Positions 54,286-59,105 of a stretch of 64,000 nucleotides of DNA are shown in pieces. The first letter of the stretch is position 1. Each line of letters begins with the position of its first letter. The DNA comes from Clostridia bacterium (lineage in GTDB: Bacteria; Bacillota; Clostridia; Oscillospirales; CAG-272): assembly GCA_017465885.1 (NCBI GenBank), contig JAFTVG010000021.1, forward strand, positions 46,500 through 110,499, written 5' to 3'. The translations under genes and the position numbers were made by a program. The notes below the pieces were generated by a model. That model saw only the letters and a program-made list of their open reading frames with translations, was not told where the DNA came from and did no database searches.

Positions 54286-54515
54286 ATCGTTCCTTTCGTG
54301 GAGCAAGGAGCCTTGCTTTTTGATGTGCTCATTATACTATGAAAGATCGGTTTTGTCAAGAGCGGCAAAAATCCGCCCTGCCGCGAAAGGGTGATGCACT
54401 TAGCGGAGAAATTTTATAAGGGGTATGGGCATAGCCCTAACTTGCAATAAAAACAGAAGAGAGAGTAACGCGGTTACAAAATTCCGTGAAGCTCTCTCTC
54501 TTTTTCTGCTTTTTT

Positions 54516-54721
54516 AGTGATATTCTTTGCTCTTACAAAGAGTGATATTATTGCTACCGCAATAGTGATATTGAAGCCTTGCGGCTTCAGTGATATTCTA
54601 TTCGCCCTTCAAACTCGCGAAGCGAATACCACTCGGCGCGAGCCGAATATCACTGCGTAGCAATATCACTCGCCACAGGCGAATAGAACTGGCGTGATAC
54701 TCCGATAAGAGTATCACGCCA
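54516..54721. repeat. Symmetric multi-hairpin element C (core AGTGATATT) with adjacent hairpin
   Basis: Cores at 54516, 54541, 54564, 54589; inverted cores at 54625, 54646, 54662, 54682; small hairpins between cores. Confidence 0.88.
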
Positions 54722-54772
54722 AAGCGGCAGGGCGTTTTTGTTCGTCGGGAGAACTCTCGGCTTGCGGTAAGG

Positions 54773-55192
54773 TCAAGCCAGCGCGATGGTGCGGGTGGCG
54801 GGCTCTTCCTTCTTTTTCTTAGGTAGGGTCAGAGTGAGCACACCGTTTTCAAGACGTCCCTCGATTCCTTCCTCGTCGATTGCAGAAAGGTCGAAGTGTC
54901 TTTCCATCTTGCCGTAGTGTCTTTCTCTGAAGAGATAGCCGCCCTCCTTCTGCTCCTCCTTTTCTTCCTTCTTTTCAGCGCTGACGGTGAGCACGCCGTC
55001 CTTCACGCTGACGCTTACCTCCTCCTTCTTGTAGCCGGGAAGATCTGCCTCGATGAGGAACCTGTCCCCCTCGTCCTTCACATCGGTACGAAATGCCGTG
55101 GGAAGGGAAGCGGACTTGACGGGTGCAAAGAAGGGATCGTCAAACAGGGAAAAAGGGGTGAAAGGGGTGTAGGGGCGCATAGAATTCAACAT
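54773..55192 (-). CDS. Hsp20 small heat-shock protein
   Basis: FRTDV, EADLPG, RERHYG.MER.F, NGVLTLTLPK; GGAGG RBS. Confidence 0.94.
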   Translation of the reverse strand: MLNSMRPYTPFTPFSLFDDPFFAPVKSASLPTAFRTDVKDEGDRFLIEADLPGYKKEEVSVSVKDGVLTVSAEKKEEKEEQKEGGYLFRERHYGKMERHFDLSAIDEEGIEGRLENGVLTLTLPKKKKEEPATRTIALA

Positions 55193-55388
55193 AATCAATA
55201 CCTCCGTGATTCGTTTTGCGTTGTGCGATCCGCTTGGGAACGGGTCGCTTTTTGGATTGGCTTTGTTTTTTTGTTTTTGTTTCGCATCGACGTTTTTCGA
55301 TCGGACTTTTTCTTTCGTTCCGATCTTGTCTACAGTATACACCTGCTTTGTGAAATAGGAATGCTTTTTTTATGTCCTTTTTGTAAAT

Positions 55389-55415
55389 TTAGCACTCCTG
55401 TGAGCGGAGTGCTAA
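55389..55415. promoter_or_regulatory. CIRCE element (HrcA operator) upstream of hsp20
   Basis: Perfect TTAGCACTC-N9-GAGTGCTAA. Confidence 0.95.
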
Positions 55416-55554
55416 ACAAACTTTGGGCAATGAAAGAAAAACGGGGGCGTAAAAGGTGATATTTACCCTTAAATTTGCAAACGAATGTTTAGAATGCTAA
55501 AACTGCTGCAAAAAAGAGCCGCCCCGCGGGGCGGCTCTTTGAAGGATCTTTTGA

Positions 55555-57483: not shown

Positions 57484-57561
57484 GGTGGAATTGGCGCAGT
57501 TGGCTAGCGCGTCAGATTGTGGCTCTGAAGGCCGTGGGTTCGAATCCCATATTCCACCCCA
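57484..57561 (+). tRNA. tRNA-His (GTG)
   Basis: G-1 plus GTGGAAT/ATTCCAC, TCAGA-TTGTGGC-TCTGA, C73, CCA. Confidence 0.95.
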
Positions 57562-57597
57562 GAAAACGACAAGTTTCGACAGAAACTTGTCGTTTTC
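57562..57597 (+). terminator. Hairpin/terminator after tRNA-His
   Basis: GAAAACGACAAGTTTC-GACA-GAAACTTGTCGTTTTC. Confidence 0.75.
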
Positions 57598-57770
57598 AAC
57601 TAAATCCACCCTTGCGGGTGGGTGAAATCATCTTCGACGATGAAATCCAACTTCGTTGGATGAAATTCGCCTCGACGGCGAGTGGGTGGATTTAATTTCA
57701 TCTGAGGCAGAGCCGAAGATTTCATCAGCGTTAGCTGATTTCATCCTTGCATCAGCAAGGATTTCATTTT
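57597..57770. repeat. Symmetric multi-hairpin element A (core GATGAAATC)
   Basis: TGAAAT at 57623, 57641, 57661 (degenerate at 57601); ATTTCA at 57695, 57719, 57738, 57761; hairpins between cores. Confidence 0.88.
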
Positions 57771-57869
57771 TTGCAAGAGTTCGAAGTCATACGCGAAAAC
57801 GGCAACAATATCTTTTTCGTAGCCCATAGACAACAAAAAGCGCACCTTTGTCGGTAGACAAAGGTGACT

Positions 57870-58050
57870 TTTTTCAATGATATCCGTTCCTTGCGGAACG
57901 GGTGATATATCTTCGATATGATATCGCTCTACGAGCGATGATATATGCCTTCGGCATATAAAGGAACGGATATTATATCATGCTTGCGAAGCAAGCATAT
58001 CATACGGCTCGCCGTATATCATATCGCGTTAGCGATATATCATTGAAAAA
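57870..58050. repeat. Symmetric multi-hairpin element B (core TGATAT) with 14-bp terminal inverted repeat
   Basis: TGATAT at 57878, 57903, 57919, 57939; ATATCA at 57975, 57997, 58016, 58037; ends TTTTTCAATGATAT / ATATCATTGAAAAA. Confidence 0.9.
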
Positions 58051-58093: not shown

Positions 58094-58447
58094 ATGTCCG
58101 AAAACAAATTACTTGACTTGTCTTTTGAATTCGCAGTTGCAATTGTTAATCTTGTTGACGGTGTAACTGCACCCAAAAGTTCCTATATGACCGATCAGCT
58201 TGCAAGATCCGGCACTTCTGTTGGCGCGAATATCCACGAAGCGCAATACGCACAAAGCAAAAAAGATTTTGTTGCAAAGTTGGAAATTGCTTTGAAAGAA
58301 TCCAACGAAACAAGCTATTGGCTAAAACTTATGTTTGAAACCAAACGGATAGATAATGCAACATATCAACACGCAGAGAAACTTTGTGGCAATATCCGCA
58401 GGCTTTTGATCGCATCTTGTAAAACCGCAAAGGAGAATGTAAAATGA
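58094..58447 (+). CDS. Four-helix-bundle protein (23S rRNA IVS protein / Avd-like family)
   Basis: SFEFAV.IV, QLARSGTSVGANIHEA, S.KDF..KLEIALKE..ET.YWL signature. Confidence 0.92.
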   Translation: MSENKLLDLSFEFAVAIVNLVDGVTAPKSSYMTDQLARSGTSVGANIHEAQYAQSKKDFVAKLEIALKESNETSYWLKLMFETKRIDNATYQHAEKLCGNIRRLLIASCKTAKENVK

Positions 58448-58820: not shown

Positions 58821-58882
58821 TTGCTACACTACTTTTGCTTACTTTTACCTTAATTATGCTCCGTTTGGTTACTCTTTCGCAG

Positions 58883-58972
58883 AAAAAAGCACACATTTGT
58901 CTACCAAGACAATGTGTGCTTTTTTGAATGAAATGCGCCTGCGGCGCTTCGCTAATGAAGCAGCCTTCGGCA
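58883..58972. repeat. Hairpin plus truncated multi-hairpin element D
   Basis: AAAAAAGCACACATT..TGTC-TACC..GACAATGTGTGCTTTTTT then GAATGAAAT-GCGCC/GGCGC, GCTTCGC, AATGAAG, GCC-TTC-GGC. Confidence 0.55.
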
Positions 58973-59105
58973 AAGGAGGTGCAAAGGATGTGAGCTTACG
59001 CCCAATGAGATTGCACTCCCCCAAAGCGGTGCATTGACTTCCTTCTCATTTTGTGGTATACTACCGATATACGGTGTGTAAATGATCGACGAAAGGATGA
59101 AACCT

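Follow-up and report, generated by a model that had tools for sequence, protein, structure and literature searches.

Repeat arrays in the window

The window, a 64,000-nt stretch of DNA from a clostridial genome (G000; 1.9 Mb, 81% complete, with labels such as C12 after it designating contigs), contains three hairpin-rich repeat arrays. Array C is found downstream of an hsp20 gene, array A behind a tRNA-His gene and array B directly upstream of a gene of the IVP four-helix-bundle family (Table 1).

Table 1. Features around arrays A, B and C (positions are those of the window)
Feature	Position	Strand	Basis or remark
Split terminator hairpin, first arm	54375..54384	+	downstream of hsp20; hairpin intact in congener G004
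2-bp direct repeat, right-end copy	54386..54387	+	AA (TT on the other strand); predicted recombination core
Gene-less unit with array C	54388..54720 (333 bp)	- (left-to-right orientation)	register from 29 complete units and empty site
Right 21-bp end arm, predicted att arm	54388..54408	+	matches recombinase-distal end of L369, L082, L331
Remnant of module preceding cargo gene in longer units	54420..54437	+	inverted, internally shortened
Long AG/CT-rich hairpin	54455..54507	.	common to short C-type units
Gut-1 half, four exact cores and three hairpins	54515..54601	+	RF01706, 39.9 bits, E 1.5e-5
Array C cores	54516, 54541, 54564, 54589	+	AGTGATATT x4, exact
Gut-1 half best fitted by Rfam	54621..54691	-	49.1 bits, E 7.4e-8; first arm also pairs with centre
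Array C inverted cores	54625, 54646, 54662, 54682	-	exact at 54646 and 54662; degenerate at 54625 (1 mismatch) and 54682 (2 mismatches)
Left 21-bp end arm, predicted att arm	54700..54720	-	with its mirror image forms hairpin 54690-54721; consensus nearly identical to end behind recombinase gene
2-bp direct repeat, left-end copy	54721..54722	+	same basis as right-end copy
Split terminator hairpin, second arm	54724..54733	+	as first arm
hsp20, terminator hit by unit	54773..55189	-	PF00011, E 1.9e-21
tRNA-His	57485..57561		followed directly by a hairpin, then array A
Array A, Gut-1 pair	57597..57769	+	73.6 and 40.4 bits; without recombinase-type ends
Array B, Gut-1 pair	57875..58045	+	62.9 and 44.2 bits; directly upstream of IVP gene; without recombinase-type ends
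IVP four-helix-bundle gene, candidate array partner	58094..58447	+	PF05635, TIGR02436; PDB 2RLD, E 1.7e-26

Judged from their Rfam matches, arrays A, B and C are 173, 171 and 177 bp long. In array C, short hairpins sit between the cores on both strands, and the layout of about four direct and four inverted cores proposed by an earlier, sequence-only reading is borne out, two of the inverted cores being degenerate. That reading had also given each array a different core sequence, which was not confirmed: the cores of A, B and C all hold TGA(A/T)AT, which is the UGAAAU linker of the Rfam model, and they are variants of one conserved word, with turnover lying in the stems. GATGAAATC itself has only 1 + 2 occurrences in array A. 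The arrays are not explained by chance, because a word-agnostic detector found 20 such arrays in the 1.9-Mb genome against 0, 0 and 0 in three block-shuffled copies, and the folding z-scores of A, B and C range from -6 to -10.

The arrays are convergent pairs of the Gut-1 motif

A, B and C each consist of two convergent copies of the Rfam motif Gut-1 (RF01706), a membership that is directly observed, with C just short of the family's cut-off. In a search with the Rfam model, a plus-strand half is followed by a minus-strand half in all three. All six halves are seen at a relaxed threshold, with scores of 73.6/40.4 bits in A, 62.9/44.2 in B and 49.1/39.9 in C; relative to the gathering cut-off of 50 bits, the best halves of A and B lie above and the best half of C lies 0.9 bit below. 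Both halves of C align to model positions 1-77, including the three hairpins and the UGAAAU-type linkers. The best half is the plus-strand, left one in A and B and the minus-strand, right one in C, so that C is indeed inverted relative to the two others, as had been proposed. The source genome has 46 Gut-1 matches, 13 of them above the cut-off, and none of 14 control genomes reaches it. The family is thus already catalogued, and A, B and C can be aligned to one covariance model. The original description (Weinberg et al. 2010, PMC2864571), in the part available to us, lists Gut-1 among putative non-coding RNAs from gut metagenomes.

Several observations concern the surroundings of A and B. A conserved spacer module with a tRNA T-loop-like start follows A (57770-57833) and also follows arrays on C13, C31, C36 and C37; it is possibly an old attachment-site remnant. 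Two genes past B, at 58882-58975, a third hairpin with a TTTGTC..GACAA centre precedes a truncated array remnant. This type of hairpin also precedes B and many tRNA-linked arrays, and its recurrence suggests stacked units behind tRNA-His. Joints 57592-57870 in five sequencing runs were set aside; their sides measure only 22-26 nt and may derive from other copies.

Loop composition and arm/centre pairing

We collected 244 distinct spacers between TGA(A/T)AT cores, of which 218 form hairpins. Read on the strand opposite to Rfam's, 62 of 109 triloops are GNA and 50 of 83 tetraloops are GNNA; only 18 are GNRA, and GNYA outnumbers GNRA. The commonest loops have a C-G closing pair. Among the 218 hairpins, UNCG occurs on neither strand, and GNA does not occur on Rfam's strand. 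The 221 terminator-like hairpins of the same genome have another composition, with GNA in 1 of 46 triloops and, among 128 tetraloops, 19 UNCG, 29 GNRA and 7 GNYA. Triloops of the GNA type closed by C-G are described as unusually stable in DNA, and cGNNAg as a selected stable DNA tetraloop, in the portion of the source that we could consult (PMC3201870). The GNA and GNNA loops on the strand opposite to Rfam's, together with the lack of UNCG, suggest that the array is selected as single-stranded DNA. Its mirror layout would place one GNA/GNNA-capped half on each strand. We consider it likely that the array folds as DNA, each strand contributing one half in which GNA/GNNA-capped hairpins are separated by a constant word of 6-9 nt. 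We argue that Rfam places the 'sRNA' Gut-1 on the incorrect strand and probably also assigns it to the wrong kind of nucleic acid.

The pairing between one terminal hairpin arm and the centre of each array, described by the sequence-only reading, was located in all three at the expected places; in C it amounts to 11 bp (54596-54606 with 54678-54688). An exact arm/centre duplex of at least 8 bases is present in 61 of 83 distinct arrays from the source genome and all collected loci, a set whose related copies are not independent, and it is made of 39 different sequences. In controls the figure was 1.8% when the centres were shuffled and 9% when they were exchanged between core families. The duplex is therefore conserved and covaries. 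Together with the alignment to a single covariance model, this upholds the earlier notion of a conserved shape with turnover in the stems; turnover is not wholesale, since the cores are one word.

That reading had further proposed that selection acts on a fold with two conformations, a long rod and a branched form. According to partition functions, which are rough for multi-branch folds, the arm/centre fold of C is 6-10 kcal/mol less favourable than the minimum, with a probability of about 0 both as DNA and as RNA, and they do not support a two-state switch for C. The same fold is dominant for A as RNA (probability 0.92-0.93), and favoured there as RNA only; for B it is nearly equal to its alternative (0.32-0.82; 0.65 for plus-strand RNA).

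These folds bear on whether the arrays might act as RNA, either as a structured non-coding RNA or as an RNA element at a 3' end that switches or stabilises and has a rod and a branched form, with transcription coming from the gene or tRNA operon upstream. Rfam does list Gut-1 as an sRNA gene with covarying stems, the arrays lie directly behind tRNA 3' ends and stop codons, and the covarying arm/centre duplex is part of the favoured RNA fold of A and of the plus strand of B. However, the lack of UNCG on both strands, the many 3-nt loops and the excess of GNYA over GNRA on the opposite strand set the arrays apart from the terminators of the genome; the motif is on both strands as a mirror pair, the alternative fold of C has hardly any weight, and the copies are scattered, polymorphic insertions. 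We therefore regard a role as RNA as improbable and favour folding as single-stranded DNA.

A 333-bp unit in the terminator loop of hsp20

Array C belongs to a gene-less unit that separates the two arms of the hsp20 terminator hairpin. The sequence-only reading had missed this mobile unit as well as the catalogued family and the DNA signature of the loops. It had taken the 13-bp hairpin at 54690-54721 for the counterpart of the long hairpins before A and B. The hairpin exists, but it is the left end of the unit with its mirror image; the second long hairpin of C, on the other side (54455-54507), had been overlooked.

Presence and absence of the unit can be observed directly. The congener G004 matches both flanks of C without the array; the unit is absent from the orthologous site, where the hsp20 terminator hairpin is intact with a 4-nt loop, and about 130 bp beside the hairpin also differ. 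The reconstructed loop before insertion is GAAA. Contigs from two independent studies skip 54366-54758, the letters between the joint ends not being seen in them. For the copy on C12, G004 has a clean empty site whose flank is 99% identical and whose loop departs from the prediction by one base. Five further sites were probed; an orthologue was found at three, and the unit is absent from all three. The region downstream of the C37 site is different in both congeners, at the C18 site the hairpin has diverged, and the searches for the C29 copy and for L016 yielded no orthologue; only the C12 and hsp20 sites thus inform the register. As an observation apart, a perfect 11-bp inverted repeat with a 7-nt spacer is present upstream of hsp20 (55388-55416) and resembles a CIRCE/HrcA operator.

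The ends of the unit occur many times in G000, and the end pattern is found in 23 of 301 genomes of the order and at no fewer than 118 places in the genome collection. Of 80 of these places that were fetched, 34 had a partner end and pairing flanks, and dropping 5 without a recognisable left end gave 29 complete units. In 28 of them the same dinucleotide lies outside both ends (TT in 24, TA in 2, AA and AT in 1 each), and TT is found at 69 of the 80 right ends. This register sets the C unit at 54388-54720, with 21-bp arms. As the 29 units were picked partly by flank pairing, their hairpin context is partly circular and not independent evidence; the empty sites and the recombinase flanks described below are independent of this selection. 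Viral contigs searched for the end pattern gave 0 matches.

Longer small units are organised as end, array, promoter, one slot, module, cargo, terminator and end. The slot holds an IVP gene (L087/L132, L148), a RAYT gene (L044, L200) or a DUF559 gene (L129, L136, L144), each with its own type of repeat. The cargo of longer members includes GNAT, NUDIX, HAD, DUF559 and RAYT genes, with restriction-modification genes in multi-kb forms. Many units have no Gut-1 array. Since A and B follow a tRNA and have none of these ends, and since other arrays and RAYT or DUF559 genes also occur between such ends, the arrays are passengers of more than one vehicle.

Other occurrences of the ends were noted. 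On C6 of G000, the lone right end of a long element (15149; L335) is followed by Fic and type I restriction-modification genes; neither a partner end nor a recombinase was found for this remnant. Solo end-derived hairpins lie inside terminators at C6:60803 and in L323. A second end family with a TAAGGAAG centre is present in L323 and on C11, C34 and C37 (62286) of G000. DUF559 nuclease genes are found inside units in L129, L136, L144, L147 and L156, some with CCCTCC-type hairpin repeats upstream; none was found in G000.

A DUF4368 recombinase as the likely mover

The 333-bp unit has no large serine recombinase gene, and its long relatives encode one. In longer versions, the same right end leads through to a TnpX-like gene (L082, L331). 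The 557-residue protein of L344 has four domains (Resolvase, Recombinase, Zn-ribbon and DUF4368), and about 55 nt past its stop codon comes the end motif in inverted orientation. In genomes, the end motif follows 10 of 11 recombinases with at least 62% identity and none of 14 with 25-47% identity. In metagenomes, 80 relatives were found and 70 examined, 66 with enough flank; at 56 of these 66 loci the motif is no more than 260 nt beyond the matched recombinase, namely 22/25 at 80-100% identity, 12/13 at 70-79% and 22/28 at 59-69%. The consensus of the left ends of small units differs at about 2 of 22 positions from that of 45 recombinase-side ends, 31 of which are followed by AA, as in the small units. 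A T-run at terminator distance is present in 32 of 43 distinct flanks behind the recombinase, against a background of 10%.

Both ends, with AA/AA and a split hairpin, are present in L369 (8.4 kb) and L416 (10.3 kb); a relaxase is encoded in L416 and none was recognised in L369. A search for both ends at 31 recombinase loci gave 2 convincing cases, 5 that appear spurious and 24 without a partner within the flank available. Right and recombinase ends lie on separate contigs with complementary outer flanks in L332/L429 (G211) and L082/L441 (G214), each pair probably being one element split by assembly. As a side observation, a TIR/SEFIR-domain gene and a methylase gene, likely a defence cassette, are cargo of the complete recombinase element L369 (2467-3615).

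Because the same end follows the genes of this recombinase clade and not those of the distant ones, the C unit is most likely a recombinase-less satellite rather than an IME. A DUF4368 recombinase of the TnpX/TndX type would insert and excise it in trans. The enzyme would join both ends across the 2-bp core into a circle, the junction being a 44-bp site with TT as its centre of symmetry. This circle would then integrate at TT/AA in terminator loops. We are fairly confident of this scheme of joining and integration. DUF4368 marks a multi-targeting TndX-like clade that includes an example with a TT core, as far as the accessible part of the source goes (Durrant et al., PMC10083194). When up to 3 candidates were scored per genome, only 10 of 401 genomes showed a member of the clade; of the 23 end-pattern genomes, 3 did. 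No cognate recombinase was found in G000, which is 81% complete; the best matches there are 40-43% identical and have no end motif. The 95 recombinase loci searched yielded neither a Gut-1 array nor the module nor an IVP gene.

Alternatively, the unit might be an ordinary MITE that a DDE transposase mobilises, duplicating 2 bp of the target; its likeness to recombinase ends would then be inherited and not used. It is short, non-coding and multi-copy, with terminal inverted repeats, as MITEs are; the 2-bp repeat depends on the site in 4 of 29 units, which fits transposase duplication as well as a recombinase core, and G000 yielded no cognate recombinase. However, a scan of 33 proteins, including 29 from complete units, found no DDE transposase, and the ends have stayed almost the same as the ones that follow the serine recombinase gene, with the orientation and the type of target also agreeing. 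Movement as a DDE-type MITE is thus unlikely, and we retain the serine recombinase as the likely mover.

As for the arrays themselves, their loops fit single-stranded DNA and their inverted doublets of word and hairpin resemble REPINs (PMC6006769, consulted in part), so that they might be REPIN- or BIME-like repeats spread by a RAYT (HUH) transposase, the whole unit being a mobile REPtron. The same ends do enclose RAYT genes at four loci (L044, L200, L101, L130), and in L096 and L100 a RAYT gene precedes the module. These RAYTs, however, have their own GTAG-type REPs and not Gut-1; the counts of Gut-1 and RAYT are not correlated (rho -0.08 over 39 genomes), RAYT is found in 2 of 20 Gut-1-rich genomes by a first query and in 5 of 20 by NF047646, and RAYT, DUF559 and IVP interchange in one slot. 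With none found in G000 either, RAYT was rejected as the mover of Gut-1, and the REPtron reading is very unlikely. The GT(A/G)G tetranucleotide at the foot of REP hairpins is absent from Gut-1 arrays, whose cores are TGA(A/T)AT. The IS200-like TnpA genes of G000 were also rejected as a source; the hairpin ends that these genes possess bear no relation to the arrays. Separately, the RAYT genes in the unit slot of L044 (2056-2601), L096, L100 and L200 contain GTAG-type REPs within their own coding sequence, and several RAYT matches, some broken, are present per genome in G247 and G290.

IVP proteins as candidate partners of the arrays

The IVP gene downstream of array B matches PF05635 with 85.8 bits (cut-off 33.8) and TIGR02436 with 95 bits (cut-off 24), and the solved relative of its product (PDB 2RLD) has 5 chains. 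The IVP family (PF05635/TIGR02436) is a distant relative of Avd of diversity-generating retroelements (DGRs), the match of the window's protein to Avd being weak (E 0.06). Avd is a pentamer that binds nucleic acid. Neither an rRNA intervening sequence nor a reverse transcriptase was found in the flanking ORFs scanned.

Co-occurrence of IVP genes and arrays is observed directly. All 7 IVP genes of G000 follow a repeat array, which is of the Gut-1 type for three of them; most arrays have no adjoining IVP gene, and 3 Gut-1 arrays of G000 have one. A six-mer that occurs at least 5 times and in both orientations lies upstream of 28 of 37 IVP genes against 37 of 1134 control genes. The counts of Gut-1 and IVP are correlated (rho 0.83) over 39 genomes that are neither random nor independent, 21 having been chosen for the end pattern and 18 being relatives from the first set, with Gut-1 counts bounded by 90 scored candidates. 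IVP is present in 20 of 20 Gut-1-rich genomes versus 7 of 19 others. In a tree of 38 IVP rows, TGAAAT, TGATAT, TGATG and TGAAG arrays fall mostly in separate clades that cross host families, with two TGATAT-type rows, including the window's own, outside their clade.

The arrays are probably a binding site for the IVP protein; this is put forward as a prediction because physical linkage alone could give the concordance between arrays and IVP. The chances seem evenly balanced that IVP oligomers read the words of the arrays, one word per clade, and that C is a deletion derivative of a longer unit with the order end, array, promoter, IVP, module, cargo, terminator and end.

Some IVP loci have particular layouts. 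The array is repeated on both sides of the IVP gene in L245 and L267; in L255 a tRNA 3' end is apparently duplicated behind the gene; and in L241, L243, L262, L263, L265 and at C36:44555 of G000, plain inverted 7-8-nt tandem repeats take the place of hairpin arrays.

The remaining possibility, that the recombinase moves a unit in which IVP is only a linked passenger and the array a neutral load whose symmetry is maintained through template switching at hairpins, would account for the many units and the recombinase elements without a Gut-1 array, and linkage can explain the pattern of the IVP tree, but it is hardly probable given that constant words, DNA-stable loops and the arm/centre duplex persist over 25 core six-mers and 39 duplex sequences and that an array is retained at nearly all IVP genes.

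Overall interpretation

Taken as a whole, we hold it rather likely that array C is a convergent Gut-1 pair within a 333-bp satellite, inserted in the hsp20 terminator loop and moved in trans by a recombinase, the array acting as folded single-stranded DNA and probably being the predicted site of an IVP protein. Tiny recombinase satellites that land in terminator loops in gut Clostridia would spare coding sequences, and genome engineers would be interested in a multi-target serine recombinase that prefers terminators as, if the interpretation is correct, a natural tool for insertion between genes. Testable candidate partners are also proposed for two orphans, the Gut-1 motif of 2010 and the IVP four-helix-bundle family.

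It is tempting to speculate, though only tentatively, that IVP/Avd-like bundles are sequence-specific readers of folded single-stranded DNA arrays, with a core word of their own in each clade. Such bundles and arrays would form a widespread, two-part and enzyme-free module that hitchhikes on tRNA islets and on satellites of a recombinase choosing terminator loops by symmetry, not sequence, and Gut-1 would be a mis-filed DNA element. The motif and the class of recombinase are known, we did not find their arrangement described, and the link between IVP and the arrays is correlational. Our literature search, which covered few subscription journals, found no paper linking Gut-1, terminator-inserting MITEs in Clostridia, IVP with repeats, DUF559/RAYT, or serine recombinases with terminators or satellites in these ways.

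Comparison with known systems

The sources cited in this section were available in part, and the comparisons apply to those parts. The arrays share with Gut-1 (RF01706; PMC2864571) the three hairpins, the UGAAAU-type linker and the occurrence in gut bacteria. In contrast with the Rfam model, which corresponds to one half, they are always a convergent pair, multi-copy and polymorphic, and they have DNA-type loops on the opposite strand and a tie to IVP genes. Like REP/REPIN/BIME repeats and their RAYTs (PMC6006769), they are dispersed inverted doublets of word and hairpin with one small partner gene per repeat type and a single-stranded DNA logic; unlike them, they have no GTAG foot, each arm contains several hairpins, and in place of an HUH nuclease they are paired with a four-helix bundle without known catalytic activity.

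As for the unit, IME_Rho_tet (PMC12904643) also has 21-bp inverted terminal motifs in gut Clostridia, with a 3' boundary 81-90 bp past the recombinase stop codon, compared with about 70-150 bp here. This likeness is one of layout, and IME_Rho_tet differs in carrying tet genes and inserting into MAFF2 ORFs. CIMEs (PMC5704250) have similarly lost integration and transfer genes while keeping attL and attR. However, they are described as decayed single copies moved in tandem, whereas the units described here are multi-copy at unrelated sites, which points to mobilisation in trans. Finally, the long relatives have the same four domains as the DUF4368 TndX-like recombinases (PMC10083194) and the IMEs of the Tn4451/TnpX type (PMC5704250), and they share with both systems many unrelated targets, a TT core and very short flanking repeats. 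The word 'terminator' is absent from the main text of both publications. What distinguishes the family described here from these systems is that its targets are terminator hairpin loops, and that most of its members are satellites of 0.3-1.5 kb without a recombinase.
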